Program-made: the position numbers and the translations under genes | Notes under the pieces: model-generated | Seen by the model: only the letters and a program-made list of their open reading frames with translations | Database searches by the model: none | Told to the model about the DNA's origin: nothing | IMG/VR virus record: IMGVR_UViG_3300025392_000001 | Coordinates: 1 to 37,376 of that record | Strand: one strand, 5' to 3' | DNA from: a virus | Taxonomy: Duplodnaviria; Caudoviricetes | Length of the DNA stretch: 37,376 nt | Shown: piece after piece, positions 1 to 37,376 of the stretch | Position numbering within the stretch: position 1 is the first letter of the stretch | How the letters are laid out: every line of letters starts with the position of its first letter

Positions 1-127
1 CCCCAGCGAAGGCAAATGCTGAGGCCCCTGTGGTGCCAGAAGGTAGCGAAAGCGATCCCTCAAGCGTAGAACCAGAAATTGATTCCGTTGAATCTGAAGA
101 TAGTGAAGCAGCCATAGATGAAGGAAA
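1..127. repeat. Terminal direct repeat, copy 1 (identical to 37250-37376); circular assembly overlap
   Basis: ccccagcgaaggc...gatgaaggaaa is present at both ends. 127 nt is a common assembler k-mer, and the repeat lies inside a continuous ORF. Confidence 0.95.
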
Positions 128-1028
128 CGCCCCTGAAGAGGTAAGCACCCAAGATTCTACACAGCAAGAGATCATTGATTTCTTAGAGTTCGCAAATGAA
201 AATCCAAATGCGAAATTTAAGTTCATGCGTAATGGCAAGGAAATGGTCATAGATGCTAAACGAGCAGCCAGTATCTTAGGACAAGGTGGAGCAATACATG
301 AAGAAGCCAGAGAATTAAAGATCCAAAAGGCAGAGTTTGATGACTACCTACAGACCAAAAGGGCTGAGGCAGAAGGTTTAACTCTAGCACTAGAATTTAC
401 GGTTAGACCGCAGATTCAGAAAGCCTATGATGAGATTCTAAAGACACAGGGATACCAGACAACATTCCAACAGCAGTATGCACAGGCTCAGGCCCGTGGT
501 GATGTGGCAGCAATGACACGCATTGAAGCAAACATGCAACAGAATGAACGCTGGATTCAACAACAAGTTGGAACAATTCAACAACTGAAACCTAACCTGG
601 ATCAGTTTTATCAAATTCGTAAACAACAAGTTGGTGAAGTCCTACAACAAAACCGCAAGAACTTTACAGATAAGGAATTGCGTAATGAATATGTCTACAA
701 TGAACTTCGTGATAAGATTAGTAAGAATTGGCAGTCAGCAAATAACCAACTAGTGCCAGGTATTCCAAACATTGATCTGATTAGTGCAGATGAACACATC
801 CTAAGTCTAATCAGAGATGGATTGAAATATCGTGAGAAACCATCAAGCAGAAGTGCTGGTAGTAGCATAGCCGCATTGACACAGAAAAAGTCAAATGCAG
901 TGGCCAACGCTAAGACACAGGGTCAAGCAAATCTTCAGGAACTTCAGGAAAGAGCCAATAAGGGCGATCGTAAAGCCCAGGATAATCTATTAGTCGCAAA
1001 GTTACAAGCAATGCGAAGTCGTAGATAA
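1..1028 (+). CDS. Capsid scaffolding protein, 3' part (true start ATG 37105, spans the circular junction, ~390 aa)
   Basis: Acidic N-terminal half, coiled-coil Q/E-rich middle and basic C-terminus; lies between portal and capsid. In frame with ATG 37105, 58 codons upstream of the GTG at 30. Confidence 0.8.
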   Translation, partial: PAKANAEAPVVPEGSESDPSSVEPEIDSVESEDSEAAIDEGNAPEEVSTQDSTQQEIIDFLEFANENPNAKFKFMRNGKEMVIDAKRAASILGQGGAIHEEARELKIQKAEFDDYLQTKRAEAEGLTLALEFTVRPQIQKAYDEILKTQGYQTTFQQQYAQAQARGDVAAMTRIEANMQQNERWIQQQVGTIQQLKPNLDQFYQIRKQQVGEVLQQNRKNFTDKELRNEYVYNELRDKISKNWQSANNQLVPGIPNIDLISADEHILSLIRDGLKYREKPSSRSAGSSIAALTQKKSNAVANAKTQGQANLQELQERANKGDRKAQDNLLVAKLQAMRSRR

Positions 1029-1058
1029 CATTAAAGACATTTTTATAAGGAAATTAAC

Positions 1059-2270
1059 ATGTCACAAATCGCAACATCCGCTATTGGTAACGGTACTACA
1101 GCATACGCTTCAGACATCGTTGTCAAAGACTTAGACCTAGATGTGTCTAACCGTGTCAAGGACGACACACCTGTTTTAAACATGGCTATGGCCAAAAAGC
1201 GTAAAGTAGTTTCTACTTTACCACTATGGACAAACGATGTGTATCGTTTGCCAGCCACTCAGGCTAACCAAGAAGGTATGGCTGTTTCTAGCTCTATGGC
1301 TGAAAGCAACCAGCGTGCCAACTTAGGTAACTACACACAGATCTTCAGTACCGTTATCAGTGCTACAGGTTCTGCTCGTGCAGTTGAACAATCTGGTGGT
1401 GATCCTCAAGCATACCAAGAAGTCAAGCAATTGATTGAATTGATGTTTGATGTGGAAGCACAAATCGTTCGTGCTGACCAAATTGGTACAAAATACGGCG
1501 GTCAATCTGGTACTGCTGGTGGCGTTACTGGTGCAAGCCAAACAGGTCGTCGCTTTGGTTCTTTGAACTCTTTCGCGGCTACTCACTCTTTCAACGCAAC
1601 TGGTGGAAGCACAGCAACATTCATCACATACACAAACGGCGAAACAACTGATGTGGCAACAACACAAAGTGGTATCGTAGTTGGTGGTGGATCTGGTTCT
1701 ACTCAAGGTGCTTACCTAGGTAGCACATATTATGTTGGTAGCGATGAGGCTAACACTCAATTCTACCCAGCGATCTACAAGCAGTTGGTAACAATGGCTG
1801 AAAAGCGTTTCAACGCTAAGATCCGTACCGTAGTTTGCCCAACCAGCCTACGCACACACCTAAGTGATAACATGCCTACAAGCCGTGGTATCAACCGTGT
1901 TAACGCAGAGCGTGGTGATACAATCCAAACTTATGAAGGCGACTTCAACTATACATATGAAATCTATGATTCTTGGATCATGGACCAATATGTTGCTAAC
2001 AACATCTACTTCTTGAATGAAGAAGTGTTACAATGGGGTTCGTTGCGTGACCTAGGTCCTAACAACGAAATCTTCTCTAACGCTGACGCAAGTCTAGACC
2101 AGTTCATCATGGAAGGAACATTAATTGTTCGTAACCCAGCAGGTGTTGCTGTTCTACACGATATCAGTTCTAGTGCAAGTGCTCCAAGTTTGAACGCTTA
2201 TGGTGCTGGTCCACTACGCCCAGCCGCTTTAGTTGTTCGTTTGAACGCATGGGGTGGAAGTACATTCTAA
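1059..2270 (+). CDS. Major capsid protein (SU10/P22-like podovirus type)
   Basis: 403 aa after the scaffold, RBS AAGGAA, highly biased codons. Motifs DTPVLNM, W-x-x-D, NQEG and R-x-N-x-x-N-Y-T-Q-I-F, plus C-terminal MEGTLIVRNP, are typical of this MCP family. Followed by a terminator. Confidence 0.9.
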   Translation: MSQIATSAIGNGTTAYASDIVVKDLDLDVSNRVKDDTPVLNMAMAKKRKVVSTLPLWTNDVYRLPATQANQEGMAVSSSMAESNQRANLGNYTQIFSTVISATGSARAVEQSGGDPQAYQEVKQLIELMFDVEAQIVRADQIGTKYGGQSGTAGGVTGASQTGRRFGSLNSFAATHSFNATGGSTATFITYTNGETTDVATTQSGIVVGGGSGSTQGAYLGSTYYVGSDEANTQFYPAIYKQLVTMAEKRFNAKIRTVVCPTSLRTHLSDNMPTSRGINRVNAERGDTIQTYEGDFNYTYEIYDSWIMDQYVANNIYFLNEEVLQWGSLRDLGPNNEIFSNADASLDQFIMEGTLIVRNPAGVAVLHDISSSASAPSLNAYGAGPLRPAALVVRLNAWGGSTF

Positions 2271-2294
2271 TCTTAACGGTTAGAATCACACTCA

Positions 2295-2357: not shown

Positions 2358-2365
2358 TATAAATA
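2358..2365 (+). promoter_or_regulatory. T4-late-like promoter TATAAATA
   Basis: Exact TATAAATA just after the MCP terminator, 12 nt upstream of ATG 2378; no -35 element. Confidence 0.65.
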
Positions 2366-2995: not shown

Positions 2996-3733
2996 ATGAG
3001 TCAAATAGCCAATGCTGACCAATTAGTAGCATTCGTCAAAACATTTACAGGCAGCACTAACACTGACGAAATTAAAGAATGTATATTCATGGGCGAGATG
3101 ATGATGCGTAACCTAGAGTTACCTATTCAACGCAGTAACCCATTTGATCCCGCATTTATAGCAGTCGCTGATCAATATGGTATGATACCTATTCCAGGCG
3201 ATATGTTAAAGCCTATCTTGTTTTTCAAGATGGGTGGCGTTCAAGGCTCCAGTGGTTCTAATCAATTAGGACCTTGGATTGTCTATGATCGCATTGGTGA
3301 TCGCGATATCATAACAGAAAGTCTAGTTGAAGCATTGTATTTGAAGCCTATCAACATTCCTTCAGTATATCGTGGTAAGTTCAGTGAAGTAGGTCAGAGT
3401 TATAAATTCCTACCAGGTCTGAGCCAAGGCGACTTAGTCAACATGTACTACTATCGTGCGTGGCCGTACCTATACAGCACTGATGTTAATGGTAATGTAG
3501 TTCAGACCAATGGTGTTTTACAAAGTTTCCCAGAAGGTTATGTTTACGCAACTCTACATTGTTATTATGTCAAGCGTAAATCGTCAGAAGACGCAGAAGT
3601 CTATAAAGCCAAGTTTGAAGAATCAATGAACATCATTGAAGACCAAAACAGCAAGGGCAAATGGAGTGGCGGACACACAAGATTAACTTCAATATTCCAA
3701 CCAAGAAAAGATCGCAGATATACTGCAAAATAA
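2996..3733 (+). CDS. Head-tail adaptor (tail tubular A-like)
   Basis: Position. N-terminal helical segment (IKECIFMGEMMMRNL) and C-terminal 'TNGVLQSFPEGYVYATL...YKAKFEE' resemble podovirus adaptors. Confidence 0.65.
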   Translation: MSQIANADQLVAFVKTFTGSTNTDEIKECIFMGEMMMRNLELPIQRSNPFDPAFIAVADQYGMIPIPGDMLKPILFFKMGGVQGSSGSNQLGPWIVYDRIGDRDIITESLVEALYLKPINIPSVYRGKFSEVGQSYKFLPGLSQGDLVNMYYYRAWPYLYSTDVNGNVVQTNGVLQSFPEGYVYATLHCYYVKRKSSEDAEVYKAKFEESMNIIEDQNSKGKWSGGHTRLTSIFQPRKDRRYTAK

Positions 3734-3743
3734 GGATTAGACG

Positions 3744-6700
3744 ATGCCTTCATTATATGGGAATACTACAACCACTTATACCGTTACAGCCAGTAATGTA
3801 AGCACCTTATATCTTGGCAGTACCAGCACGGCAATCACAGCCACAACTTATAGCACTAACCTGGCTGGCTTATATGGTGGATCATACGCGGCATTACCTA
3901 CCAACGCTGAACAACTTATTCAATTGTTTGACAACAATGGTAATGTACATTTTTATCTGGATCCTGTTACCAATAGTGCAACTATCTATGCTAACTTTGT
4001 TGGCACAGGCACAATCTCTTTGGGCAACTATCAGATCTCTGGTGATTCTATCATCAACTCCAGCAATGATAATATTAACTTTGTCACTAATGGATTGAAT
4101 TGGTATCTAAACAACAATGGCACAACACAATTTCCTAACTATACATTTCCATCAGCACATGGATCTGCAGGACAGGTTCTAATTGACAATGGCAGTGGCA
4201 TATTAGCATGGACCACTGCTTCAAGTACATTTAATCTAAGCACGGTCACTAACCAAGCACTATTCACAACCAGCTCAGTTCAATTTAATAGTGTCAAGTT
4301 TGGCGACAACACACAACAAACAACTGCTTGGACAGGCACGGTGGCTGCAAGTCAGATTACCAGTGTTAATACTAATACAATTCGTGGTCTAAGCACAATT
4401 GGCTACACAGGTAAACTAAGTGATGGCATTGGACAGATATCTACTTCAACCGTAAGTGGATTGAGTATTGTTGGTTATACAAACAACTACAATGACCTAT
4501 CTAATAAGCCCACAATACCTGCACCATTTAACCTAAGCACGGTCACTAACCAAGCACTATTCACAACCAGTAGCGTTAAGTTTGGCGGACTACAGGTTAC
4601 TAACTTAACCACAATAACACACATTGATACATTAGGTGTACCTTTGGTATTGGCATCTCTTACCACAAGTACAAATTATCGTTACCTAAACGCATATGGT
4701 AATATACTTCATGGCGTAAACTCAGGTAATAGTGCTCGTATCACTTTGGATACCTATAATAATACCTCAACTTCTTATTCAGATAAGAGTTATTATTCAG
4801 CTCGTCGTGCTCGTGGCACTATTGACGCACCTTCAGCACCACAGCCAGGTGATTACCTTATGCGTATGGCAGGTTACGGATATGGAACAACTGGTTTCTT
4901 AAGTACAGCCAGTGCTGGCATTTGTTTCGTGGCATTTGAACCATTAAGTGATACTGCGGCAGGTGGTCAAATTTCTTTTGACACAATGGTTCCAGGTTAT
5001 AATGATGTAACTCATCAAGAAATTATTGCCACAATGGATGCTGTCAATGGTTTCAGTGTTGGACTTATTACATTCAATGATAATTCACAACAAACCACAG
5101 CATGGAATTCAGTAGCCTCTGTTTCAACAAGTCAGATCAATGGTCTAAGCACAATTGGTTATACTGGCAAACTAAGTGATGGCATTGGCAGTATATCTAC
5201 AAGCCGTGTTTCAGGTCTAAGCACCATTGGATACACAGGTAATTTAAGTGATGGCATTGGTAGTTTATCTACAAGTCGTATTGCTGGCCTGAGTGTTGTT
5301 GGTTATACAAACAACTATAATGACTTATCTAATAAGCCTACACCATTTAACATTGGCACCGTAACTAACCAAGCATTGTTTACAACCAGTAGTGTTGTCT
5401 TCAATGGTCTACAGATTAATAATTTAACCACAATAACATTTGTTACTTCAACAAGCTCACAAGCACCCTTGTTTATCAACTCCAGTGGAGTAAGTAATCC
5501 TCCTCCTCCAGCAACTGATGGATATTCAATCTGGGCTGTTGGCAAAACAGGAACCAGTGCCGCAATTGCCTTGGATAGTTACGCTAATACTCCTTCAATT
5601 GGTGTTCAATATCCACGATTCTTGGGACGCTTTGCTCATGGAACAGCCTCAAGTCCAACAGCGGCACAAAATGGCGATACATTGTTATCTCTTAGAGGTA
5701 ATGGTTATGCTACAACTGGATTTAACACCACAGCCAGTGCTTATTTGAATTTTGTAGCCAACGAAAACTTCACAGATACTACTCGTGGTACCAAATTCCA
5801 AATGTATGCTACACCAGTTGGCACACAAGATCCAACATTGATCAATACATTTGATCCTAATGGCAGTCGTTTTTATGGAACCTATACACAATCTAGTAGT
5901 GTTATAAGTGCAGTTGGTCCTGGATCAAGTGCCAACTACCAAGGACCTTCTAATGACGGATACCTATTCTGGGGTATTAACAAACCTAATACTGCGGGTC
6001 GTCTAACTATTGATACCTATGCCAATCCAAATGCAGGTGGTTCTAGTTTAGATAAAACTTATTTTACAGGTCGTCGTGCTCGTGGCAGCAGTGGAAGTCC
6101 TACAGCAGTTCAATCAGGCGATACATTGTTGCGAATTGCTGCCTATGGTTATGATGGCACAGGATTTGTTGGAACAGCCAGTGGTGGTATAACTTTCTAT
6201 GCCGCTGAAAACTTTAACTCAGGTTCAGCAGGTGGTAGTATTATATTTGATGTAATGGAATTAGGTTGGAATCAACCAGCATTCCAATTTACTCCTTTAT
6301 CTTTAGATTACACTAATGGTGTTTCTATTGGTAACAAGATAACATTCCCTGATAGTAGTGTTCAAACTACCGCATGGACTGGCAGCATCAGCACCAGTAG
6401 CGTAATTGGATTAAGTACCATTGGCTATACAGGCAAATTAAGTGATGGTCTTGGACAAATTTCTACTTCAACCGTTGCTGGCCTAAGTGTTGTTGGTTAT
6501 ACAAATAATTACAATGATCTAAGCAATAAACCTACAATACCTAGTCCGTTTGATCTAAGCACGGTTACCAATCAAGCCTTGTTTACTACAAGTTCAGTGA
6601 CCTTCAATAGTATCACTGCTACTAACGGATTGTATTCAGTTGGCACATACAATAAAACTTACACTGATGGTATCGTAGTTGATTATGCTACAGGTAATGG

Positions 6701-8321
6701 TCGTGTCAGCGTTGGTCCTGCTGATCAATTAACATTCTACACAGGTGGCGTTGCCAACACAGCAATGGTCACTATGGGCAGTGGTGCTACTACAATGTCC
6801 AGTGCCTTAAATGTGGTTGGTCCAATCACAGGTCAAAGTTTGGTCATTACAACTGGTACGGTGGGCATACAGGCAATTTCTGCAGGTGGCTATCCATTAG
6901 ATATCAATGGACAAGCATTAATTTCAATTGGTAATACACAAAGTCCAAGTTTAGTAGTCAGCAACTATACCAGCGGTCTTCGTGGAGGTATTGTAACCCG
7001 TAACTGGGGACAAAACTTACCAGGCGGAACCAGTACTACAAGTCCTAACCCTGCAATTTTAATGGATGGTGCTCGTGGAACTCCAGCAAGTCCAACAGCA
7101 GTTCAAAACGGTGATACTCTTGGTTCTGTCAGTGTTAGTGGATATGACGGTGCTAACTGGTCTACATCAACCAACCTAGCACCAGGACAAATAGTATGGC
7201 AAACTACAGAAGCCTTTGTTGCTGGTCCAGGTGGAACTACAAACAACGCAGGTACAAGATACTTCTTCCGTCAACAACCTCAGTTTGTTAAGTTAACTGC
7301 TACAAGTCGTCAAATTGTTAATTTAACAAGTTGGTCTACAGCATCTAATGCACCTCCACAACTTAACTATTTGGTTGGTAGTGGTATTGATGGAACAACT
7401 CCTACATTAACAAGTTCAGACGGTGCTAACAACTATACAGGTTATGGTCGCACTAACTTTAACTTAATAAATGGTGCATTTAACATATTTGGCGTTACTG
7501 GACAAGATTCAGCACCAGATAACTCTACCTTAACTGGCACGAACTTTTTAAGCATTTACAGCAGCCGTCAAAGTGCTGTTAGTGGTCGTCGCAACGCTAT
7601 ACAATCAGGCGATACTATTGGTGGAATTAACTTTGCTGGACAAACAACCAATAGCTCAACAAGTAATGGTTTATTTGGTGCTAGAATTAATGCCTATGCG
7701 TTAGAAAACTTTTCAAATAGTGCAAACGGTACTGCTTTAAACTTTGGCACCGTAAACACTGGAACTACAACATTAAGTAGCAGATTAACCTTAAATGACA
7801 AATCAAACACTTATGTGTCTGAAGGTCATTATTTCTTACGCAACAACAATGCTGGTATTCAGCGTATAGCTCTTTTGAATACTGCCACTACTTTTATTAA
7901 TAGTGATAATATTCAATTCAATGGATTTAACAATGGCACATTACAAAATATTGCCACATTTACAACTTCCAGTGTTACTTTAAATGCATCTAACTTAACC
8001 GTTGGCACATCAAACTGGTCTATTCCAACTACAACTGGTATCAGTGGAACAAGTCCTCAATTGGTGGGTGGTTTTGATACTACACAATATACAACTGGAA
8101 AATTTATTGTTTCTATTAAAGATGGAACCAATTTTCAAAGTGCAGAAGTATTGTTGCTTTCAAATGGTTCAAGCACAGCAAATACGGTATATGGTATTGT
8201 TATCATAGGTGGAAGTATGGGATCGTTTAGTAGTTCGTTGAGCGGAACAATTGCACAATTATACTTTACACCAACAGGTGCTTCAAGTATGACAATCAAA
8301 TCATCATTGCAGGTAATTTAA
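3744..8321 (+). CDS. Long tail fibre / adhesin with internal repeats
   Basis: 1525 aa, T/S/G/N-rich. Repeated STVTNQALFTTSSV, GLSTIGYTGKLSDG, GYTNNYNDLSNKP and ARGTxxxPTAxQxGD modules. Confidence 0.8.
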   Translation: MPSLYGNTTTTYTVTASNVSTLYLGSTSTAITATTYSTNLAGLYGGSYAALPTNAEQLIQLFDNNGNVHFYLDPVTNSATIYANFVGTGTISLGNYQISGDSIINSSNDNINFVTNGLNWYLNNNGTTQFPNYTFPSAHGSAGQVLIDNGSGILAWTTASSTFNLSTVTNQALFTTSSVQFNSVKFGDNTQQTTAWTGTVAASQITSVNTNTIRGLSTIGYTGKLSDGIGQISTSTVSGLSIVGYTNNYNDLSNKPTIPAPFNLSTVTNQALFTTSSVKFGGLQVTNLTTITHIDTLGVPLVLASLTTSTNYRYLNAYGNILHGVNSGNSARITLDTYNNTSTSYSDKSYYSARRARGTIDAPSAPQPGDYLMRMAGYGYGTTGFLSTASAGICFVAFEPLSDTAAGGQISFDTMVPGYNDVTHQEIIATMDAVNGFSVGLITFNDNSQQTTAWNSVASVSTSQINGLSTIGYTGKLSDGIGSISTSRVSGLSTIGYTGNLSDGIGSLSTSRIAGLSVVGYTNNYNDLSNKPTPFNIGTVTNQALFTTSSVVFNGLQINNLTTITFVTSTSSQAPLFINSSGVSNPPPPATDGYSIWAVGKTGTSAAIALDSYANTPSIGVQYPRFLGRFAHGTASSPTAAQNGDTLLSLRGNGYATTGFNTTASAYLNFVANENFTDTTRGTKFQMYATPVGTQDPTLINTFDPNGSRFYGTYTQSSSVISAVGPGSSANYQGPSNDGYLFWGINKPNTAGRLTIDTYANPNAGGSSLDKTYFTGRRARGSSGSPTAVQSGDTLLRIAAYGYDGTGFVGTASGGITFYAAENFNSGSAGGSIIFDVMELGWNQPAFQFTPLSLDYTNGVSIGNKITFPDSSVQTTAWTGSISTSSVIGLSTIGYTGKLSDGLGQISTSTVAGLSVVGYTNNYNDLSNKPTIPSPFDLSTVTNQALFTTSSVTFNSITATNGLYSVGTYNKTYTDGIVVDYATGNGRVSVGPADQLTFYTGGVANTAMVTMGSGATTMSSALNVVGPITGQSLVITTGTVGIQAISAGGYPLDINGQALISIGNTQSPSLVVSNYTSGLRGGIVTRNWGQNLPGGTSTTSPNPAILMDGARGTPASPTAVQNGDTLGSVSVSGYDGANWSTSTNLAPGQIVWQTTEAFVAGPGGTTNNAGTRYFFRQQPQFVKLTATSRQIVNLTSWSTASNAPPQLNYLVGSGIDGTTPTLTSSDGANNYTGYGRTNFNLINGAFNIFGVTGQDSAPDNSTLTGTNFLSIYSSRQSAVSGRRNAIQSGDTIGGINFAGQTTNSSTSNGLFGARINAYALENFSNSANGTALNFGTVNTGTTTLSSRLTLNDKSNTYVSEGHYFLRNNNAGIQRIALLNTATTFINSDNIQFNGFNNGTLQNIATFTTSSVTLNASNLTVGTSNWSIPTTTGISGTSPQLVGGFDTTQYTTGKFIVSIKDGTNFQSAEVLLLSNGSSTANTVYGIVIIGGSMGSFSSSLSGTIAQLYFTPTGASSMTIKSSLQVI
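4236..4570 (+). repeat. 38-bp exact direct repeat (4236-4273, 4533-4570) in tail fibre 1
   Basis: ctaagcacggtcactaaccaagcactattcacaaccag occurs twice; degenerate copies near 5356 and 6555. Confidence 0.9.
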
Positions 8322-8330
8322 GGAAATTAA

Positions 8331-11177
8331 ATGTCAGATTTTAACTCGCCATTTTTAACACAGAACGGTATCAGTGGATCAACTGCCACGGTTACTGCTC
8401 TTGTGTTTACTGATAATACGCAACAAACAACTGCATGGACTGGAACCGTTGCCGCAACCAATGTCACTGGATTAGCCACGGTAGCCACAAGCGGAAGTTA
8501 TAATGATCTAAGCAATAAGCCTAGCCTACCTAATCAAACATTAAACACTTCCAGCAATGTACAATTTAATAGTATTATTGTAAATGAAGGTCCTCCAGGT
8601 ATGGGTGGTTTGACTTTCAGCGAGCCAGGCAACGACACAGGTATCTACAGCAATGAAGATGGACAAATTGATATCTACGCTAACAATGCATTGGCTATTC
8701 AAATTGATGAAAGCGGATTAGAAATTAAAGTAGATGGCGGATTAACTTTCTATGATAATACAGCACAATACACAGCATGGACTGGATCTGTATCTACAAG
8801 CTCAGTAACTGGTCTAAGCACAATTGGTTATACAGGTAAACTAAGTGACGGCACTGGGCAAATATCTACATCAACCGTTGCTGGTCTAAGCACAATTGGT
8901 TATACAGGTAAACTAAGTGACGGCACTGGGCAAATATCTACATCAACGGTTAATGGATTATCAACCGTTGGTTATACAAACAACTACAATGATCTAATTA
9001 ACAAACCTTTTATTCCTAGTGGGTCTAGTGATCAAAATTTATATACAACTTCCAGCGTAACATTTGCAAGTTTAGGTATAACAACAGGCACTAAACTTAC
9101 ACAGACATTATCTTTAGGTGGATATCCTTTAGATCAAAATGGACAAGCATTAATTTCAGTTGGAAGTTCACAAAGTCCTAACATTATTGCCAGCAACTAT
9201 TCAAGTATATTACGCCCTAGTATTAATATTAGAGCTTATGCAGCCAACTATCCAGGCGGCACACCATCAACAGGTGGAACTGGTGTTTTAGTATTAGAAG
9301 GTGCTCGTGGAACAGGTGCAAGTCCTACGGCTACTTCATCCAGTGACACAATAGGTTCTGTTTCATTTGGTGGATATGACGGTGCTAACTGGTTAGGTAA
9401 CCAAAATACTGGTGGAGCAGTCACATTACCTCCTGGACAATTATTAGTTCAGGCTGCTGAAACATTTGCCAATAATGGAACCACTACAACCAATGCTGGC
9501 ACAAACTTAGTATTAAGATTGCAACCTCTTGGTGCTCAACTAAACAGCACCAGTCGCGTTATTCCGTTATATATTAACTGGACAGCAGGTTCAACTGCCA
9601 CTACCATACCTCCAACGATGAACATCAGTCTTGGACAAACAGGTGGCAACGGTAATCCAACACAAACTCCTTCAAGTAGTGTGGGATCATTTGGCACAGG
9701 GACAGGCGGTACAAACTTAGTTTATACACATGTTAAGAATACAATCTATGGTGTGCCTAACCAAGATAGTGCTCCAGACAACAATGGTATATTAGGTTCA
9801 AATACCATTAACTTCAGCACAAGTCGTCGCAGTGGATTCAGTGGTCGTCGTAATCCATTGTTGTCAGGTGATACGGTTTTCAGTATTGCTGGAACTGCAC
9901 AGACCGCAACCAATAGTACATTAAATGGTACTTCTATTGGTTACTTTAGTTTTGGTATGTTAGAAAATGCAACCAATACCGCAGTTGGTAGCCACGCTTA
10001 TATTGCAACGGTTCAAACTGGGACTACTATCATTTCAAACCGTGTTGATTTTAGTGATAGAGCCAATAGTTATTTTAGTGATCTACATAGATTCTCTGAT
10101 AAGACTGGGTCATTTAATGCTCTTAATATTACTACTAGTACAATTAGAGTTAATGCTCCAAGCATTACATTCCCAGATAATACGGTTCAAACAACTGCTT
10201 ACACAGGAACAGCGGCAGTAAGTTTTGTATCAATTACAGCGGCACAAACTACAACAACCAATACTTCAACACAAATTGTATTGATTAGTGATAATGGAAA
10301 TACTCCAGCATATTACAATTCAACTATTAGCAATTGGTTATACATAGGATCAAATAATATTGTTTATACACCTCCTGCTTCAACATATACCATTAACTAT
10401 CTAGTTGTTGGTGGTGGTGGTGCTGGTGGTTTTAAACGAGGTGGTGGTGGTGGTGCTGGTGGATATCAAACTGGTTCTTATACGGTTACTCCAGGTACCA
10501 CCTATACTATTACGGTAGGTGCTGGCGGTGCTGGTGGAAGTCAAACTGGAGCCAACGGAAATAGTTCAAGCATGGTTGGAACTGGCATTAGCCTAACATC
10601 AACTGGTGGTGGTAAAGGTGCTGGTGGTGGTGGTGCTGGATATGATGCAGGATCTGGAGCAAGCGGTGGTGGTGGTACTTATGTTGATGGAGGATTACGC
10701 AACTATGGTTCAGGAACTGCTGGACAAGGTTATGCAGGTGGTGCTGCCAATTCATCCTATTCAAATGCTGGAGCAGGTGGCGGTGGTGCCGCAGCCGCAG
10801 GTTCACCAACATCTGCAAACAACGCTGGTTCAAATGGCGGTAATGGTGTTCAATGGCTTGATGGAAACTATTATGCTGGTGGTGCTGGTGGTGGAGGACA
10901 ATCTTCCGCAGGCACTGGCGGTTTAGGTGGTGGTGCTAATGGACAATATGACCATTCAGGTGATAATGGTTATGCAGGAACTGCTAACACAGGTGGTGGC
11001 GGTGGCCCAGGTGGAGATTCTACACAAATTTCAGGTAATGGTGGTAGTGGTGTAGTTGTTATTCAAGTATTAACTTCACATGCAGGATCTATTTCAACAA
11101 CAGGTTCTCCTACAATAACTACAGCAGGTTCTTATACCTATTACTACTTTACTGGTAGCGGAACATTTACATCATAA
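8331..11177 (+). CDS. Second tail fibre with C-terminal glycine-rich domain
   Basis: 948 aa, shares repeat modules with fibre 1. C-terminal YLVVGGGGAGG...GGSGVVVI...YYYFTGSGTFT is a glycine-rich domain. Confidence 0.8.
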   Translation: MSDFNSPFLTQNGISGSTATVTALVFTDNTQQTTAWTGTVAATNVTGLATVATSGSYNDLSNKPSLPNQTLNTSSNVQFNSIIVNEGPPGMGGLTFSEPGNDTGIYSNEDGQIDIYANNALAIQIDESGLEIKVDGGLTFYDNTAQYTAWTGSVSTSSVTGLSTIGYTGKLSDGTGQISTSTVAGLSTIGYTGKLSDGTGQISTSTVNGLSTVGYTNNYNDLINKPFIPSGSSDQNLYTTSSVTFASLGITTGTKLTQTLSLGGYPLDQNGQALISVGSSQSPNIIASNYSSILRPSINIRAYAANYPGGTPSTGGTGVLVLEGARGTGASPTATSSSDTIGSVSFGGYDGANWLGNQNTGGAVTLPPGQLLVQAAETFANNGTTTTNAGTNLVLRLQPLGAQLNSTSRVIPLYINWTAGSTATTIPPTMNISLGQTGGNGNPTQTPSSSVGSFGTGTGGTNLVYTHVKNTIYGVPNQDSAPDNNGILGSNTINFSTSRRSGFSGRRNPLLSGDTVFSIAGTAQTATNSTLNGTSIGYFSFGMLENATNTAVGSHAYIATVQTGTTIISNRVDFSDRANSYFSDLHRFSDKTGSFNALNITTSTIRVNAPSITFPDNTVQTTAYTGTAAVSFVSITAAQTTTTNTSTQIVLISDNGNTPAYYNSTISNWLYIGSNNIVYTPPASTYTINYLVVGGGGAGGFKRGGGGGAGGYQTGSYTVTPGTTYTITVGAGGAGGSQTGANGNSSSMVGTGISLTSTGGGKGAGGGGAGYDAGSGASGGGGTYVDGGLRNYGSGTAGQGYAGGAANSSYSNAGAGGGGAAAAGSPTSANNAGSNGGNGVQWLDGNYYAGGAGGGGQSSAGTGGLGGGANGQYDHSGDNGYAGTANTGGGGGPGGDSTQISGNGGSGVVVIQVLTSHAGSISTTGSPTITTAGSYTYYYFTGSGTFTS
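8809..8947 (+). repeat. Near-tandem exact 67-bp duplication with 72-bp (24-aa) period
   Basis: 8809-8875 is identical to 8881-8947. Confidence 0.9.
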
Positions 11178-11187
11178 GGAAAGATTA

Positions 11188-11547: not shown

Positions 11548-11561
11548 GATAAGGAAAACAA

Positions 11562-22784: not shown

Positions 22785-22790
22785 CTTTTT

Positions 22791-23082: not shown

Positions 23083-23096
23083 GACTAAAATTCCTG

Positions 23097-27975: not shown

Positions 27976-28098
27976 GACTTAAATATTCAGTGCTAGTGTT
28001 AATGATCCCACGCAGGATGCCAGTAAGAGTGTTTTGATCATTTCCCCTTACAACCATAAAGCCAAATGCGTCTAGCATACCACTCGTAAATATCCATT

Positions 28099-28515: not shown

Positions 28516-28937
28516 AAGAAGCATTTGTTTATCGCTGGCGTAATACACAAACCAAACAATGGTATGTAGGCTATCATAAAGGCACACCTGATGATGGTTA
28601 TATCTGTAGTAGTATTGTAGCCAAACCCTTAATTGAATCTAATAATAATTGGGTGCGTAAGATACTTAGATTTGGTTCTAAACAAGAAATGATTAATCTT
28701 GAAAAGCGTATTCTTAAAGGACTTAACGCTAGACGCAATCCTCATAGTTTAAACAGAAGCAACGGTAGTCCCGCTCGCTATAGTTCATTTGACATATTAG
28801 GTTATAATCTTAACAATATGTCAGCACATGAAATAGCATTAAAATACAAAGAAGAAATAGATTCCAACAACAAAGAGCGTAGATTGGTTGTAGAGGAATG
28901 GCTTTTAAACAAGGTATTTTTCAAGAACGCTAAATAA
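28512..28937 (+). CDS. GIY-YIG endonuclease (Seg-like)
   Basis: FVYRW...WYVGYH...GYICSS...LEKRIL...SLN. Confidence 0.8.
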   Translation: MKEAFVYRWRNTQTKQWYVGYHKGTPDDGYICSSIVAKPLIESNNNWVRKILRFGSKQEMINLEKRILKGLNARRNPHSLNRSNGSPARYSSFDILGYNLNNMSAHEIALKYKEEIDSNNKERRLVVEEWLLNKVFFKNAK

Positions 28938-28944: not shown

Positions 28945-29325
28945 ATGAATGTTAATCAAAAAAATTCAGAATCAACAGAAAAGCCAGGTAGAGGTGGTGC
29001 ACGCCCTGGTGCTGGCCGTCCCAAAGGTTCTAAGAGTCATGTGACTATTGCTGGACTATTAGAAGCCATTGAGAATAAAACAAATGGCCGCACCTATGAA
29101 GAACTATTGGTTGAAGACTTTATCAACGCACGCCTTGACGGTGATACACAATTGACACACAAGTATCACACACTACTATCTAATAAGTTTGTGGCTAACT
29201 TAAATGAGATCACCGTAGAAGACATTGGCGACCAAGTAGAAGGTAAGCGTACAGCGTTCTTAGAAGCGGTGAATTCTATCATAAACATAAATAAAACAAA
29301 GGACAATGAAGATGGCCAAGAATAA
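28945..29325 (+). CDS. Terminase small subunit (putative)
   Basis: N-terminal RGGARPGAGRPKGSK motif; preceded by TAAATA (28931-36). Confidence 0.65.
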   Translation: MNVNQKNSESTEKPGRGGARPGAGRPKGSKSHVTIAGLLEAIENKTNGRTYEELLVEDFINARLDGDTQLTHKYHTLLSNKFVANLNEITVEDIGDQVEGKRTAFLEAVNSIININKTKDNEDGQE

Positions 29326-31054: not shown

Positions 31055-31864
31055 ATGATTATGAAAAAGCCCACAGGCAAACCAGTAGATGTCTGGAATG
31101 ATGAAATCAAAGAAGATTCAACACTAACACCAATTGAACCAGAAGTTTTAGACTTTGAAGAACCTATTGAAACAATCAACTCAGTAGACGCACTAAAACC
31201 AGAACCAATTGAATACAGCCTAGAAGGCCTGAAGTCAGACTTCCCAACTGCCACTGAGTTGGAGAAGTTTGTATTTGATGAGACTCGTGTTTCATTAAAG
31301 TTAAAAGGTCTAGCACCTGAAAAGAAATATGAGATTGCCCTAGCAGTTTTACGCAATGAAGACATTGATCCACGCTACATCACAGGTGCTAACCCTTATG
31401 TAGACAACAATGATCTAATCCCAGAAGATCCAATCAAACCAATTCCTAAACGCGATCCACGCTTGCCCTCTAACAGCCAAGTTATGAGTGTGTTCCACGA
31501 TATGGCTGTGCCTCACCCTGACTACAACATGCGAGCAGTTGATGCCAAAGTTGTTTGTCAATTCAAGACCTATGATGATGGCAGCATTTCATATGAAATC
31601 ATGGGACCATTAGAGAAACAATCATTTGGTGAGAAGATTGACAAGTATGGTCGTCCACGCCCAGAGAAGTTTGTATGGATTGATCCACGCACTGGTGAAC
31701 AAGCCATTCGTTACGCTGATGGCACCTACACCAAAATGGGACAACGCCTACGCACCCTAATGGAAAGCAAGCGTGTTAACCGTACACAAAGTTTCTGGTC
31801 AGTTTGGATTGATCGTTCATTCACTCAGTTCAATCAAGGTGCCATTGACAATCCCTGGAATTGA
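31055..31864 (+). CDS. Hypothetical protein
   Basis: 269 aa, RBS AAAGGAA, strongly biased codons. Confidence 0.75.
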   Translation: MIMKKPTGKPVDVWNDEIKEDSTLTPIEPEVLDFEEPIETINSVDALKPEPIEYSLEGLKSDFPTATELEKFVFDETRVSLKLKGLAPEKKYEIALAVLRNEDIDPRYITGANPYVDNNDLIPEDPIKPIPKRDPRLPSNSQVMSVFHDMAVPHPDYNMRAVDAKVVCQFKTYDDGSISYEIMGPLEKQSFGEKIDKYGRPRPEKFVWIDPRTGEQAIRYADGTYTKMGQRLRTLMESKRVNRTQSFWSVWIDRSFTQFNQGAIDNPWN

Positions 31865-32484: not shown

Positions 32485-32704
32485 TTGGGATCCCTATCAG
32501 AAGTTAGAAGAACTATTTGTTCGTGACGCTGTGCATGAACATAATGTAGATGCCATGGGTGAAAAGTTATCACAGGTTTGCCACCTAATGGAACAAATGG
32601 CTGAACAGATAAAACATTTGACCAATGCTGTGGCAGGCCTACAAAGACAAAATAAAATACTTCATGATAGGCTCACAAGAGTAGAGTTTAAAGAATATGA
32701 TTGA
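32471..32704 (+). CDS. Hypothetical coiled-coil protein
   Basis: 77 aa, overlaps both neighbours. Confidence 0.6.
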   Translation: MFNHDWDPYQKLEELFVRDAVHEHNVDAMGEKLSQVCHLMEQMAEQIKHLTNAVAGLQRQNKILHDRLTRVEFKEYD

Positions 32705-34322
32705 TTCCAATGTTATCATGCGTAGGGCTGTGCGTTGGGTCTGTGATGAACATAACCTAAAGCCAGATAGCCTAAAACTATTTGATACCTACACTCGCAC
32801 AAAGTTTGAAGACTTTGCTATCAGTGTGGCTGATGAGATGCAATACAATCAGTTAAAGTATTTCAGGCCCTTTAATCATCAGATGAAGTTTTTTGCTACA
32901 GGCGGCAGTCCACGCAGAGGCATCCTGGCTGCTAACCGTATTGGTAAAACGGTATCAACATGTTTTGAAACTGCTTATCACCTGACTGGACTTTATCCTG
33001 ATTGGTGGCCTGAAAATGCCAAGCGTTTCACAAAGCCCATAACCGTGTTTGTCAGTGGTGAAGGATGGGAACAGGTTGCCCGCGTTCTACAAGATGAATT
33101 GATTGGTACTAAAGATGTCAAGATCAAAGATCACATTGGCACAGGTGCCATACCCCGTAATTGCATTGTGCAGGATACCATGCGATGTGATGGTGCTAAC
33201 ATTTTGGGTGTTGAGGTTCGTCATGTTTCAGGTGCTAATTCATATTTGCTATTTGGTAACTACACGCAGGAAGTTCGTAACTTACAGGGTTTCAAATTAG
33301 ATCTATGTGTGTTTGATGAACAACCACCTGACGCAATCTTTTCAGAATTAGTCACTCGTACTGCCACAACACAAGGACAGGTGCTTTGTTCATTCACACC
33401 ATTAAAAGGCTTGAATGGATTAGTAAGTAAATTTTGGTATGAAGAAGATGGTTATGAACATGTTCGCGTAACATGGGATGATGTTCCAGAATATGATCCT
33501 TGGGGCGAACCTTTCTTGCTTATGGAAACACGCCGCCAATTGGAGCGTGATTATCTACCACATGAGCGTGAAGCTCGTATTGCTGGTGTGCCAGTTATGG
33601 GTCAAGGTGCTGTATTTCAAATACGCAATTGGCCCACATACAAGACTGGAGATTTTAACTTCCGTGAAATGAATGACATAGAGCGTGTGATTGCCCTAGA
33701 CCTTGGATTGGTTCGTGATAAAACGGTTATCAGTTTGATGTATTGGAATCCACGCGAAAATGAAGCATGGCTACATTCTCAAATTGTAGTCAAAGGCACA
33801 GAAGAAGCCGCTCCTGTAAATTGGATACAACATCTAATGCGTTCAGAAGTATTTGGCTGTCCTATTGTTCTACCCAGTGATGCCAACACAGCGGGCCGCT
33901 ATACAATGTCAGCCCTAAGCCTAAGGCAGATGTTTGAAGAATACAATCTCAATGTTGTTGCCCATCCTGTTATGAATCCTCCTGATAGTGAGGGCAAAGT
34001 AACTAATCACAAATCATTTGGTGTAAACACAATGCGTCAAATGTTAGAGTTAGGAACACTACATGTCAATGAAAACTGCGTGGAATTTCTGCGTGAAGCC
34101 AAGAATTATTTTGTGGATGAAAAAGGAAGATTTTCAGACCCTGATGATTGTCTAGATTCAGCCCGCTATGCTTTATTAGGTTGTTTAAATGGATGGTCAG
34201 AACCTTATGATCACAAGACTCCTCAACAGCGTATGGCTGAATATAGGATGATGGCTGAGAACATCAAAGCCCGCAAAGAAATTAATATACCACAATGGAA
34301 GCGTCCTTTAGAAGTTAGATAA
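32697..34322 (+). CDS. terL: Terminase large subunit
   Basis: Walker A AANRIGKT, Walker B CVFDEQP, FTP coupling motif, nuclease IALDLG and DDCLDSARY. Confidence 0.95.
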   Translation: MIDSNVIMRRAVRWVCDEHNLKPDSLKLFDTYTRTKFEDFAISVADEMQYNQLKYFRPFNHQMKFFATGGSPRRGILAANRIGKTVSTCFETAYHLTGLYPDWWPENAKRFTKPITVFVSGEGWEQVARVLQDELIGTKDVKIKDHIGTGAIPRNCIVQDTMRCDGANILGVEVRHVSGANSYLLFGNYTQEVRNLQGFKLDLCVFDEQPPDAIFSELVTRTATTQGQVLCSFTPLKGLNGLVSKFWYEEDGYEHVRVTWDDVPEYDPWGEPFLLMETRRQLERDYLPHEREARIAGVPVMGQGAVFQIRNWPTYKTGDFNFREMNDIERVIALDLGLVRDKTVISLMYWNPRENEAWLHSQIVVKGTEEAAPVNWIQHLMRSEVFGCPIVLPSDANTAGRYTMSALSLRQMFEEYNLNVVAHPVMNPPDSEGKVTNHKSFGVNTMRQMLELGTLHVNENCVEFLREAKNYFVDEKGRFSDPDDCLDSARYALLGCLNGWSEPYDHKTPQQRMAEYRMMAENIKARKEINIPQWKRPLEVR

Positions 34323-34350: not shown

Positions 34351-34358
34351 TATAAATA
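34351..34358 (+). promoter_or_regulatory. T4-late-like promoter TATAAATA upstream of portal
   Basis: Exact TATAAATAAAAGAAA, identical context to 2358; no -35 element. Confidence 0.65.
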
Positions 34359-34383: not shown

Positions 34384-36729
34384 ATGTTTGATAAAAGCCA
34401 TTTCGTAGTATCAGAAGTTTACAATCCCACAGGACGCATGGAGCGTTTCTTACATCTAAAGCGTATCATGGATCAGAAATGTGCTGCCAACTTACGCTTG
34501 TTGGCCACCAAAAATAACATCAATCGTGCTAGTGATTACCACTACTTAAACCTAGCAGTTACGCAATCAACTGAACCTGTTAATGGTATTGACTACATTC
34601 ACCCTGTGGTAAAACCCTCAGTGGATTACTCTACAGCAGTTATTTCTAAGGGCCTAATGCAGAATGGTGAGATCAACTTTGAGTTTGTGCCTGATAACGA
34701 AGATGACACAGCAGCCGCTCGCCAGGCTACTGAAATGGTACACAAACTAGTAAACCAAAACAACGATCCACATTTTATTCTACAGCACTGGATCATGGAC
34801 GCCCTACTACACAAGAACGGCGAAATGATGATCAGCCCAGATCGTGAATTGATCACACGCTATGTCAAGACAACTGGTACCAACGATCAACTACAGGCAT
34901 TTGAAGCACAGGCTGCTGACGCTGGCCTAACTGCCCTACGCACCAAGAAGCGTAAGGTCAAGGTTGATGTTGAACAGGTCATGAAAGAAACTCAACAATG
35001 GCATCAAGGTGCTATTCAAGAACGCAGACAAAACATTCTAAACAACTTTGAAGAACAAATGCGTCGTGGTGCAGAAGGTGATGAAGATTCCATGCACACA
35101 CCTTTGATGACACCAGAAGACAATACTCCAATTGCTGATGGTGAAGCCGCTGTAAATGAATCAGTGGCACGCAATACCATATTTGAAGCAGAATACAAAC
35201 TAACTGGTTACAACCTAAACATTCGTTTCCGTCCTATAGCACAACACTATTGGATGTGTAATCCCACAATCATTAACATTCAGGAACAAGATTTCTGTGG
35301 CTTCTATGATCCTATGAGTATTCAAGAAGCCTATGAACGCTATCCTGATATTAATCTTGAGAAGTTCATGGAGTTCGCAGAATATAGTAATGTTGGTGCA
35401 TATCAGGCTGGATCCCTTCTCAATAACCTTGCCATTCACGCTAGGGACTCTGTTCCTATCAATGGTCTGCCAAGCACAGGTTATGCGGCCCAGGATCCTA
35501 CAGCCCGCCAAGTCACGGTTCTAACAACATGGAACCGTTATGATATTGACAATGATGGTGAATTAGAATTAGTGGAAATTATCTACTCTGGACAATACAT
35601 TATCAGTGCCCGCGAAGTAGAGTTTATTCCAGTGGCCAACATGTGCCCAAGACCACTGCCACAAAACTTCTATGGAATGAGTTTGGCTGAATCGCTAGTT
35701 CCAGCACAGGAATATATGACATCCGCTCATAGAGCAGAGATTCAATTAGGTTTGCTAACAGCCACCCCACGCATTGGTGTTAAACCAGATCGCGTTGACT
35801 TTGAAATGATTCAAGACGGTGAAGCCGCTATCTTTATTTTAGACAGCAAGTTTGATCCAGCAACTGATGTCTATCCAATGCCAGCACCAAGTGGTAACTT
35901 AGCCTTCGTTGAAACTGCCATGAGCAGATTACAACAAGACATCATGGCCCTAGTTGGTATGACTACTCCAACAGACACATTCACACCAGAAGTTATGAGC
36001 CCAGGTAATAGTGGTGCCAAACTACAATTGGCCATGGGACCTAACCAACTTATCCAGGACAACATTGTTAAGAATTGTGCCCAAGGATTAGAAGATGCAT
36101 TATGGTTAGTATGGCGTACTCTAGTTCAGTATGGTGATGATTATGGTGTTAAGAAGTTGGCTAAACAATTTAACCCAAATCACGAACCTGTGTTCTTAGA
36201 TGCAGAACGCTTTGACAACATGGATTTCTGTGAGCGTAAGATTATACACATTGATCTAGCAGTTGGCATGGCATCAGAAGAAAACAGCCTACAACGCATT
36301 CAAGCCATCAAGGCAGCACAAACACAATTGGTTCAAGAAGTTGCACAAGGTGTTGCAATGAATGCCATTACTCCTGAATCATTCAAGAAGATGCGTCGCC
36401 CTTATGAAGATATGATGTATGTTCTAGGTGTTAAGGATGCTGACACTTATCTTCTAACTGAAGAAGAAGTTATGAAGATGGCACAACAAGCACAACAGGC
36501 TGCGGCACAGAAACAACCTAGCCCAGAAGAAGTTAAAGCCAAAGCACAGGCTGCATTAGATCAAGCTCGTACACAAGAAATTATGAGCAAGATGACAGGA
36601 CAACATCCTGATGCAACCAAGGCATTGGCACAGGCCAACAAAGATAATTCTGATGTTGCAGGAACATCAGCAGGCAAGCAGTTAGATGCCATTGCCCTAA
36701 TTAAACAACATAAGGCCACGAACTATTAA
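34384..36729 (+). CDS. Portal protein (P22/SU10-like)
   Basis: 781 aa after terL. F-x-P-x-x-x-DD-x-x-AA-x-QAT, DALLHKNG, YDIDNDGELEL and P-x-P-x-x-FYG-x-SLA motifs; Q/A-rich C-terminal barrel. Confidence 0.9.
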   Translation: MFDKSHFVVSEVYNPTGRMERFLHLKRIMDQKCAANLRLLATKNNINRASDYHYLNLAVTQSTEPVNGIDYIHPVVKPSVDYSTAVISKGLMQNGEINFEFVPDNEDDTAAARQATEMVHKLVNQNNDPHFILQHWIMDALLHKNGEMMISPDRELITRYVKTTGTNDQLQAFEAQAADAGLTALRTKKRKVKVDVEQVMKETQQWHQGAIQERRQNILNNFEEQMRRGAEGDEDSMHTPLMTPEDNTPIADGEAAVNESVARNTIFEAEYKLTGYNLNIRFRPIAQHYWMCNPTIINIQEQDFCGFYDPMSIQEAYERYPDINLEKFMEFAEYSNVGAYQAGSLLNNLAIHARDSVPINGLPSTGYAAQDPTARQVTVLTTWNRYDIDNDGELELVEIIYSGQYIISAREVEFIPVANMCPRPLPQNFYGMSLAESLVPAQEYMTSAHRAEIQLGLLTATPRIGVKPDRVDFEMIQDGEAAIFILDSKFDPATDVYPMPAPSGNLAFVETAMSRLQQDIMALVGMTTPTDTFTPEVMSPGNSGAKLQLAMGPNQLIQDNIVKNCAQGLEDALWLVWRTLVQYGDDYGVKKLAKQFNPNHEPVFLDAERFDNMDFCERKIIHIDLAVGMASEENSLQRIQAIKAAQTQLVQEVAQGVAMNAITPESFKKMRRPYEDMMYVLGVKDADTYLLTEEEVMKMAQQAQQAAAQKQPSPEEVKAKAQAALDQARTQEIMSKMTGQHPDATKALAQANKDNSDVAGTSAGKQLDAIALIKQHKATNY

Positions 36730-36747
36730 TAACAAAATGGAATTGAA

Positions 36748-37092
36748 ATGATCATAAATGACGAATTGACCCAGGCATTTAACCAAAAGCCTAAATTAGA
36801 TATAAATAAAATTAAGACAATGTCGCCAGGGCAACTGGATGCCATTAAAACTTATGGTAGTGGAGCAGAAAACCTGCTGTCAAATAAAGACTTTGCACTC
36901 TTTGTTCACCACTTTAAGTTTGACATAGCAGACGAACTCAGCGGCATTAACGGACATACACCAGATGACAATTGTAAGCGAGTTGCTCTCGCCCATATGA
37001 TCGCTGGAGTTGACAAATTCGTAGCCAGTCTGCAAAGAGCAGTCTACTACAAAAATCGTGCGGTAAGCATTCAAAATGCCCCCACAGAATAA
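36748..37092 (+). CDS. Hypothetical protein between portal and scaffold
   Basis: 114 aa, 'AENLLSNKDF' motif; internal TATAAATA at 36801-08. Confidence 0.7.
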   Translation: MIINDELTQAFNQKPKLDINKIKTMSPGQLDAIKTYGSGAENLLSNKDFALFVHHFKFDIADELSGINGHTPDDNCKRVALAHMIAGVDKFVASLQRAVYYKNRAVSIQNAPTE

Positions 37093-37104
37093 AGGAAAAT
37101 TTAA

Positions 37105-37376
37105 ATGACTACAGAACAAGTAGTGAGCACGCCTAATGCACCAAGCACGGCCCCTGCTCAAAACGCAGTTCCATCATTGGATTCAATTGCCCAGAAAATG
37201 GCCGCTATGCGTAACCAACTTCCAGCAACCAATGAGACTGAGACAGGTTCCCCAGCGAAGGCAAATGCTGAGGCCCCTGTGGTGCCAGAAGGTAGCGAAA
37301 GCGATCCCTCAAGCGTAGAACCAGAAATTGATTCCGTTGAATCTGAAGATAGTGAAGCAGCCATAGATGAAGGAAA
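37105..37376 (+). CDS. Scaffolding protein, 5' part (continues across the junction)
   Basis: AAAGGAA RBS, ATG 37105, MTTEQVVSTPNAPS... reads through into VVPEGSES. Confidence 0.85.
   Translation, partial: MTTEQVVSTPNAPSTAPAQNAVPSLDSIAQKMAAMRNQLPATNETETGSPAKANAEAPVVPEGSESDPSSVEPEIDSVESEDSEAAIDEG
37250..37376. repeat. Terminal direct repeat, copy 2
   Basis: Identical to 1-127. Confidence 0.95.

Follow-up and report, generated by a model that had tools for sequence, protein, structure and literature searches.

A TAAATA promoter-like box shared by a family of small tailed phages with no recognised sigma factor, and their possible dependence on a co-infecting phage

TAAATA boxes and virion genes of the window

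This study was concerned with the hexamer TAAATA in IMGVR_UViG_3300025392_000001, an IMG/VR record of a tailed virus (Duplodnaviria; Caudoviricetes) whose full length of 37,376 nucleotides was analysed and is called the window. The TAAATA box pattern described here is a real feature of the whole family of phages to which the window belongs, and this family is probably one of self-packaging, virophage-like satellites which would use the late sigma factor of a co-infecting phage. The window is the genome of a podovirus-type phage, a closed circle of 37,249 bp with a 127-nt end overlap, present as direct terminal repeats, and a CheckV completeness of 100%.

All 47 open reading frames (ORFs) of the window were scanned against Pfam and PHROGs. 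Features are on the plus strand unless noted, and ORFs are named by their first position. The virion and packaging set comprises an SU10-type major capsid protein (1059..2270; PF17236, E 3.2e-31), a probable scaffold gene that precedes it and runs from 37105 to 1028 across the circle junction, an adaptor with two long tail-fibre-like proteins and further virion proteins (2996..14401), the terminase large subunit TerL (32697..34322; Pfam/PHROGs) and an SU10-type portal protein (34384..36729; PF23899, E 1.8e-49). Other named proteins are Dps, GroES, FkbM, a 2-oxoglutarate-type hydroxylase and GNAT, in addition to several HNH, GIY-YIG-like and endonuclease VII nucleases. No match to a sigma factor, RNA polymerase, clamp, DNA polymerase, primase, helicase, integrase or endolysin was obtained for these ORFs in the two databases.

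TAAATA is present at 13 positions on the two strands, compared with 37.7 +/- 5.3 in dinucleotide shuffles and 30.7 expected from an order-2 Markov model. Ten of the 13 are intergenic, although non-coding DNA makes up 3% of the window, and nine are found 6-60 nt upstream of a start on the same strand (binomial P about 4e-11). For 14 permutations of the same letters, the best values were 8 of 23 (ATAAAT, which overlaps the motif) and 8 of 40. An artefact of stop codons (TAA followed by ATA) was ruled out, since TAATAA and the other permutations are not similarly enriched. TAAATA comes only 141st among hexamers in genome-wide depletion, the avoidance of restriction sites being the stronger effect.

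Several boxes head virion or packaging genes. The late-type box TATAAATA at 2358..2365 follows a terminator-like hairpin of the capsid operon, is 18 nt upstream of ORF 2378 and is found at 18 of 21 family orthologs. The TATAAATA box at 34351..34358, 33 nt from the portal gene, heads a predicted portal-scaffold-capsid operon and is found at 21 of 22 orthologs. These two boxes have the same 15-mer and no -35 element. The boxes at 14419..14424 and 16771..16776 are 31 nt upstream of the GNAT gene 14450 and 24 nt upstream of 16795, the start of a probable internal virion/ejection operon, and the second is found at 21 of 22 orthologs. The box at 27980..27985 stands immediately after a terminator-like hairpin, and the box at 28087..28092 is 12 nt from the ATG at 28099, which predicts a near-leaderless mRNA. 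Two boxes are placed in the tail of the preceding ORF, 14-18 nt upstream of the next start: 28931..28936, 14 nt from the TerS-like gene 28945 and found at 19 of 20 orthologs, mostly at an offset of 10-12, and 29288..29293, 18 nt from the endonuclease VII-like gene 29306. Terminator-like hairpins are found just before several boxes (near 2300, 23050-23080 and 27955-27975). Lastly, TATAAATA at 36801..36808, with its TAAATA at 36803, is within the conserved ORF 36748 and is either an internal promoter or a chance occurrence.

Four further sites (22802 on the minus strand, 22884, 23128 and 24674) overlap or adjoin sigma70-like promoters of the form TTGACA-16/17-TAnnnT. These double promoters are a leftward TTGACA-17-TAAATT with TAAATA 22802-22807 inside its spacer (22790..22819, minus strand), a TTGACA-16-TATAAT overlapped by TAAATA 22884 (22857..22889), a TTGACA-17-TAAATT followed by TATAAATA upstream of ORF 23237 (23097..23135), and a TTGACA-16-TATAAT with TATAAATA inside the spacer upstream of ORF 24709 (24663..24690).

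An earlier note, made from the window's letters alone, had described most of this arrangement. The 13 positions it gave all exist and no others do; the placement upstream of transcription units is borne out, also by the count of intergenic and coding sites against a Markov null; and its statements that the sites at 2358 and 34351 have a 15-mer in common without a -35 box, that the genome is complete, that a full virion is encoded, and that sigma factor, RNA polymerase, clamp, DNA polymerase, primase, helicase and endolysin are not recognisable agree with our data. It had also put forward the 8-mer TATAAATA as the consensus, which was not upheld. This 8-mer is present at five of the 13 sites, and its five copies compare with 2.6 expected and are reached in 15 of 100 shuffles, so the 8-mer alone is not above chance.

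Conservation and geometry of the box in the family

The family set consisted of 22 genomes, the window and 21 of the longest contigs from 87 loci (29-40 kb, 82-100% complete, 37-48% guanine plus cytosine). Contig G022 was not included, G003 and G006 lack their final 130 and 471 bases, G012 and G013 are near duplicates, and genes were called by a purpose-written script. The number of family members in IMG/VR is estimated at about 1,400 stretches.

In this set, 243 of 492 TAAATA copies are 6-60 nt upstream of starts, compared with 3% expected, and all 22 genomes have upstream boxes. Among all hexamers upstream of family starts TAAATA ranks second, behind one Shine-Dalgarno word. The box precedes the same genes across genomes, being found ahead of the TerS-like gene in 19 of 20, the portal gene in 21 of 22, gene cluster 1 in 21 of 22 and gene cluster 6 in 18 of 21. 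The family consensus is RMTAAATA, with A (44%) or G (33%) at -13 and C (47%) or A (37%) at -12, which departs from the full T4 consensus of T-13 and A-12.

Distances from box to start peak sharply at 11 nt (45 cases, compared with eight at 10 nt and eight at 12 nt). This peak was also found without a gene caller (57, compared with at most nine elsewhere). A second, broad class of distances with Shine-Dalgarno motifs covers 20-36 nt (129 cases). In the 22 genomes the profile upstream of the box is flat, with no consensus and thus no -35 element, and a sigma70-like pair accompanies 3 of 138 core-gene boxes compared with 11 of 98 non-core boxes. At the T4 promoter P23, according to the available text of PMC7892883, transcription starts 5 nt after TAAATA, and the box is a -10-like element without a -35. 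Given the P23 geometry, a peak at offset 11 would be expected if a gp55-type promoter produced leaderless mRNAs. These comparisons support the box as a gp55-type, -10-like promoter, which would lie at -11..-6 from the start site. An archaeal TATA box is located about 25-30 nt before the start site, and this candidate was ruled out by the spacing, since the sharp peak here is 11 nt before the ATG.

Related phages served as controls. In autonomous podoviruses with related capsids, few TAAATA copies were upstream of genes: 1 of 17 in MW202484, 1 of 6 in pCB2047-A, 3 of 68 in C75C1 and 0 of 4 in Ss1 (20 kb), and apart from Ss1 with its four sites the hexamer ranked 430, 840 and 1088 (MW202484). 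MW202484 (Manatee Spring Caudoviricetes sp.) is a natural autonomous control for the family. Its capsid is 59% and its terminase 52% identical to those of the window and its head-gene order is the same; it differs in encoding Erf, SSB, Cro, RusA and a chitinase-type lysin and in showing no TAAATA signal. Among phages with gp55, TAAATA ranked 4 in T4 (100 kb), 4 in Mosig, 1 in S-SRM01 (140 kb), 9 in Moby and 12 in Cr30. Seven TAAATA sites of Mosig are at offset 11, and no offset-11 leaderless class was found within the 100 kb of T4 that were tested. In Cr30 (KF301602, a Caulobacter phage; L182-L189), TAAGTA outranks TAAATA upstream of genes, which indicates that gp55 specificity drifts.

The box was also found outside the family. 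Small phages with siphovirus-type heads or tails have accessory genes in common with the window (FkbM up to 81%), and upstream TAAATA ranked 3 in G056, 3 in G057 and 15 in G055, all of siphovirus type, and 2 in G054, a divergent podovirus. None of core clusters 0-10 and 12-17 is found in the siphovirus-type phages. Their contigs are 57-90% complete and thus constitute supporting evidence only. An accessory module (FkbM, HNH, 21677-like and 21434-like genes) recurs together with TAAATA boxes in L137-L147 and G054-G057. A scan with an 18-letter terminator-promoter pattern returned five mixed contigs, which yielded one further small phage (G054) and no helper.

Search for a reader of the box

Six-frame searches of the 22 genomes with gp55 (phrog_234; E 2.5e-70 for the T4 control), sigma70 region 2 (PF04542) and the jumbo-phage late sigma (phrog_12791) gave no match in any genome. 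A custom gp55 hidden Markov model gave a best E of 1.1 for the 934 family proteins, a custom jumbo-sigma model a best E of 0.046, and hhalign of gp55 to 109 family clusters a best probability of 3%. A further 201 cluster representatives were scanned against PHROGs (137 also against Pfam), skipping 24 proteins of more than 700 aa and those of less than 45 aa, and no sigma factor, DNA polymerase, integrase or endolysin was found. Searches of PDB sequences with clusters 2, 10 and 12 returned nothing below E 0.19. ORF 31866 has weak matches to sigma-decoy families (E 0.003-0.008), and its better matches are a family of no known function and an HNH family.

A conserved motif is expected to have a conserved reader, yet no early gene is found in more than 10 of the 22 genomes. 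Core clusters 0-10, 14 and 17 are also present in the motif-negative MW202484, and the remaining core proteins are Dps, TerS-like, low-complexity and virion proteins. The earlier note had named ORFs 23237, 23932, 24709 and 31055 as places where a late sigma might hide. Two of these were folded. The model of 23237 is a beta-barrel (predicted local distance difference test score, pLDDT, 70; best Z 6.0, to designed barrels), and that of 31055 is a small helical domain with a beta sheet (pLDDT 76; best Z 4.2); as modelled, neither resembles sigma region 2, which is helical. Neither model had a significant match in Foldseek or VIA, where the absence of sigma domains from the lists does not exclude them, and neither protein had a usable match in the ESM Atlas. 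The other two ORFs were negative in profile searches only. One homolog of 23237 has the source label "RNA polymerase auxiliary subunit epsilon", which is supported by neither Pfam nor the fold.

Since the searches revealed no sigma gene in the family, the boxes are likely read by a gp55-type sigma of a co-infecting large phage.

Candidate helper phages

Cluster 23 (L100:16018-16308 and orthologs) is an early gene of about 95 aa which is present in 9 of the 22 family genomes. It matched 15 of 50,697 phage records, all of them jumbo phages (Phosso, Atu_ph07, the PA5oct group and SCTP-2), and is found in about 5,000 IMG/VR stretches. The gene is a candidate for interference with, or mimicry of, a helper.

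These jumbo phages carry a late sigma. This sigma, phrog_12791, a gp55 homolog by hhalign (99%), was found in 4 of 4 cultured jumbo phages, in 8 of 19 contigs including both complete ones, and in 11 of 12 others. The accessible text of PMC5259590 describes for the jumbo phage CBB a gp55-like sigma and an ATAAATA motif ahead of structural genes, with gp33 and gp45 not detected, and that of PMC7318152 describes PA5oct as reliant on host RNA polymerase and lists only sigma70-like promoters for it. In our data, TAAATA ranked 1-2 in eight of nine jumbo sets, and offset-11 peaks were present in G042 (15) and G044 (10). The -13/-12 profile of the family is at a distance of 0.36-0.57 from jumbo phages, compared with 0.66-1.03 from T4, Mosig, S-SRM01 and Moby. 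In addition, 13 family clusters match four jumbo contigs (660 kb) versus two for a T4-like set (540 kb).

Thus PA5oct/Atu_ph07-like jumbo phages are probably the best helper candidates, with no exact match among them, and this group should be taken as a lead. Phages of the PA5oct, Atu_ph07 and CBB type carry a gp55-related late sigma, use the TAAATA box and have genes in common with some family members; they differ in being autonomous, 280-520 kb in size and mostly A at -12, and would be helpers, not kin. The assignment of the box to a T4-type late promoter, made in the earlier note, is sustained for the offset-11 peak, the missing -35 and the orthologous conservation and not for the flanks. 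The link to gp33 and the gp45 clamp is not established, since the flanks are nearer to the jumbo group, whose relative CBB is reported without these proteins.

Proposed mode of dependence

From these data we infer the following course of infection. After entry, host sigma70 would likely transcribe only the early block (22.6-28 kb) from its canonical promoters. Once a helper's late sigma had joined host RNA polymerase, transcription of the early block would be maintained from the TAAATA boxes that overlap these promoters. At the packaging, head and tail operons, other TAAATA boxes would start transcription, in many cases of leaderless mRNAs. The phage DNA would then be packaged into particles that the phage itself encodes, and their release would likely rely on lysis by the helper. 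Replication driven by the helper would be the weakest step. Late transcription borrowed from a helper, as the earlier note proposed, fits the lack of a sigma in 22 genomes, with the amendment that early genes keep sigma70 promoters, which had gone unnoticed. Its proposal of borrowed replication is weakly supported. No replication gene was recognised in the window and no DNA polymerase in any of the 22 genomes; however, many autonomous phages lack a polymerase, so that its absence does not point to a helper.

A wider proposal, on which we are evenly divided, is that podovirus- and siphovirus-type phages of 25-40 kb form a large and widespread guild of obligate bacterial virophages, which would assemble complete particles yet depend on the late sigma, and probably on the lysis, of co-infecting PA5oct/Atu_ph07-like jumbo phages; TAAATA promoters in a genome that lacks a sigma gene would identify them in metagenomes.

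Several observations weigh against dependence on such a helper. First, no helper, host, co-occurrence or transcript was observed. Secondly, the 2,419 capsid homologs among 7,998 candidates scored might be more than expected for an obligate satellite with no known route of persistence (no integrase). Third, C at -12 reaches 47% in the family and at most 24% in any tested large phage, and in T4 gp55 a deep pocket accommodates A-12 (PMC7892883, available text). Fourth, a primase-like and/or helicase gene was annotated in cluster representatives for 12 of the 22 genomes. The comparison with jumbo phages also has its limits: the jumbo set was picked through one shared gene and the T4-like controls were not matched for habitat, the motif-negative MW202484 also has two genes in common with the four jumbo contigs, and the window lacks the jumbo-shared early gene (cluster 23) and has no protein that matches the four closest jumbo contigs. 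The box signal is weaker in the siphovirus-type phages (ranks 3, 3 and 15). Lastly, the structure models cover two window proteins and not the hypothetical proteins 21677, 23932, 24709, 27119, 28099 and 32200.

Alternative explanations

Host RNA polymerase may read TAAATA through an alternative or lineage-specific sigma, in which case the phage would be autonomous. This would explain both the box in unrelated virion types that have no gene in common and the high abundance of the family, and C at -12 was matched by no tested phage. However, canonical TTGACA-16/17-TAnnnT promoters stand beside the boxes in the same genome, a sign that promoter recognition is by two separate systems. The spacing is that of gp55, with an offset of 11, compared with 12-13 for sigma70, and related autonomous podoviruses lack the box. 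To our knowledge, though no search was aimed at it, no bacterial sigma has this -35-less element, which was also counted against a host sigma. We regard this explanation as unlikely, if the best placed of the alternatives.

The phage may instead encode its own late specificity factor, either a very remote sigma or a small activator. The phiEco32-like phages, which encode their own sigma, are a precedent; the virion genes are of SU10 type, many ORFs fall in no family, and only two proteins were folded. A reader of a motif kept in 22 genomes should itself be conserved, and the early genes do not reach even half of them; the core candidates are either in the motif-negative relative or are the Dps, TerS-like, virion and low-complexity proteins noted above; five profile searches were negative; and both folds (23237 and 31055) are beta-rich. 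An own factor therefore seems rather improbable.

Facultative use, in which the phage completes its cycle on host sigma70 read-through or persists episomally and in which the boxes only raise or rescue late expression once a large phage controls RNA polymerase, would suit the four dual early promoters, the codirectional course of most genes from the early block, which makes read-through geometrically possible, and the replication genes in 12 of 22 genomes, yet we give it little credence because terminator-like hairpins precede several boxes with no antiterminator recognised, a sigma70-like pair is lacking at 135 of 138 core-gene boxes and no endolysin was found.

Relation to known systems

T4 late transcription (gp55, gp33 and gp45; PMC7892883, available text) has the same TAAATA core, -11..-6 spacing and lack of a -35. 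However, T4 encodes the sigma itself, and its consensus is TATAAATA, with T-13 at 69% and A-12 at 76% as counted in this analysis. The phiEco32-like podoviruses encode a sigma70-family factor, and none was found in the 22 family genomes.

MiniFlayer, a satellite of MindFlayer, is similar in having its own head and packaging genes, a podovirus-like short-tailed particle and no integrase or primase, and it could not be purified away from its helper; it differs in its 17-kb genome and Streptomyces host (PMC10690885, available text). The word "promoter" does not appear in the main text of that paper, and a borrowed sigma is thus not described there. The satellites MulchRoom and Ando borrow tails, and Phanie is also named (PMC13587820, accessible text). 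Since self-packaging satellites are already known from MiniFlayer, the new part would be the borrowed late sigma.

P4, phage-inducible chromosomal islands (PICI), PICI-like elements (PLE) and capsid-forming PICI (cf-PICI) are also helper-dependent and often carry a primase-helicase, as do 12 of the 22 family genomes. P4 transcription is activated by P2 Cox, according to the part of the source available. These elements integrate and borrow capsids or tails, whereas the family has no detected integrase (no match in the window or the family cluster representatives scanned) and the window has its own head and tail genes. The earlier note had called the window the reverse of P4, PICI and PLE, which is apt for the gene content, although self-packaging satellites had a precedent.

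The closest working analogy is with the virophages Sputnik and mavirus, which carry the late-promoter motif of their helper (PMC6723459, accessible text). They differ in having eukaryotic hosts, and the giant virus supplies a whole RNA polymerase, not a sigma. The virophage capsid lineage is unrelated to tailed-phage capsids. The tailed-phage genes, Shine-Dalgarno motifs and sigma70-like promoters make the family an analogue of virophages only.

The literature searched, with subscription journals and supplements (such as the CBB and PA5oct promoter tables) outside it, contained no description of tailed phages that have T4-type late promoters and lack a sigma. What bacterial satellites are known to borrow is capsids, tails or replication, and in the literature found only eukaryotic virophages are described as taking over a helper's late-promoter signal wholesale. 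If the proposed dependence is true, the members of a family at present taken for ordinary lytic phages would parasitise other phages and be a likely brake on freshwater jumbo phages, the reading of viromes would alter, and a promoter without its sigma would provide a test for satellites from sequence only.

Occurrence

An independent assembly matches the window at 99.99% identity across 17.6 kb. Freshwater metagenome runs contain the window, with at least half of its words in 13 of the 24 rows listed, seven of these being possible sources, and none of the sequencing runs listed as containing it is an RNA run. Contigs from four other freshwater runs, possibly from one campaign, cover 29-30 of 30 window bins, mostly at 99% identity. 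Adapter or short chance matches accounted for most of their loose ends, and these contigs, which cannot show absence, contained no clear integration joint. Among GTDB genomes, relatives accounted for only 2 of 105 pattern matches, both in short contigs of metagenome-assembled genomes, with no prophage context. The capsid had no match in plasmids, and tail fibre 8331 had none in cultured phages.

ACGT, CCGG, TCGA and ACWGT are absent from the window and AGCT and GCGC are nearly so, a strong avoidance of restriction sites. The avoided sites are not the same set across relatives (G001-G021 compared), which suggests several hosts with many restriction systems.

Other features of the window

A structured non-coding RNA of about 190 nt with a terminal terminator-like hairpin is predicted at 22895..23085 (fold z = -6.84, 0 of 200 shuffles, hairpin included), between a double promoter and the hairpin. 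Rfam gave no match for it, the only Rfam match being one of low complexity. Its segment 22996-23018 has partial complementarity to the next transcript's leader (23142-23170), an arrangement that resembles antisense immunity or copy-number RNAs. The next gene, 23237..23935, encodes the hypothetical protein with the predicted beta-barrel, which has a disordered N-terminus and is not kept family-wide, and 31055..31864 encodes the core hypothetical protein folded above, which is also present in MW202484.

The two fibre-like genes have diverged internal repeats in common (3744-11177; families D2, D4, D9, D10 and D20). A Dps/ferritin-like protein and a possible holin, ORF 21434 with a weak XhlA-like match, are encoded at 20983..21676. 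The Dps/ferritin-like gene (20983-21432) is nearly core (20 of 22 genomes), is the last gene in the probable ejection-protein operon and is not found in MW202484. An accessory module at 25161..27921 (HNH, GNAT-like, GroES, FkbM methyltransferase and HNH) is partly common to the siphovirus-type small phages, and its GroES gene (26033-26299) stands without GroEL, as in large phages. The HNH-like gene 31866-32222 is skipped in a strain variant of run X10 (joint 31869 to 32351) and is probably a mobile endonuclease.

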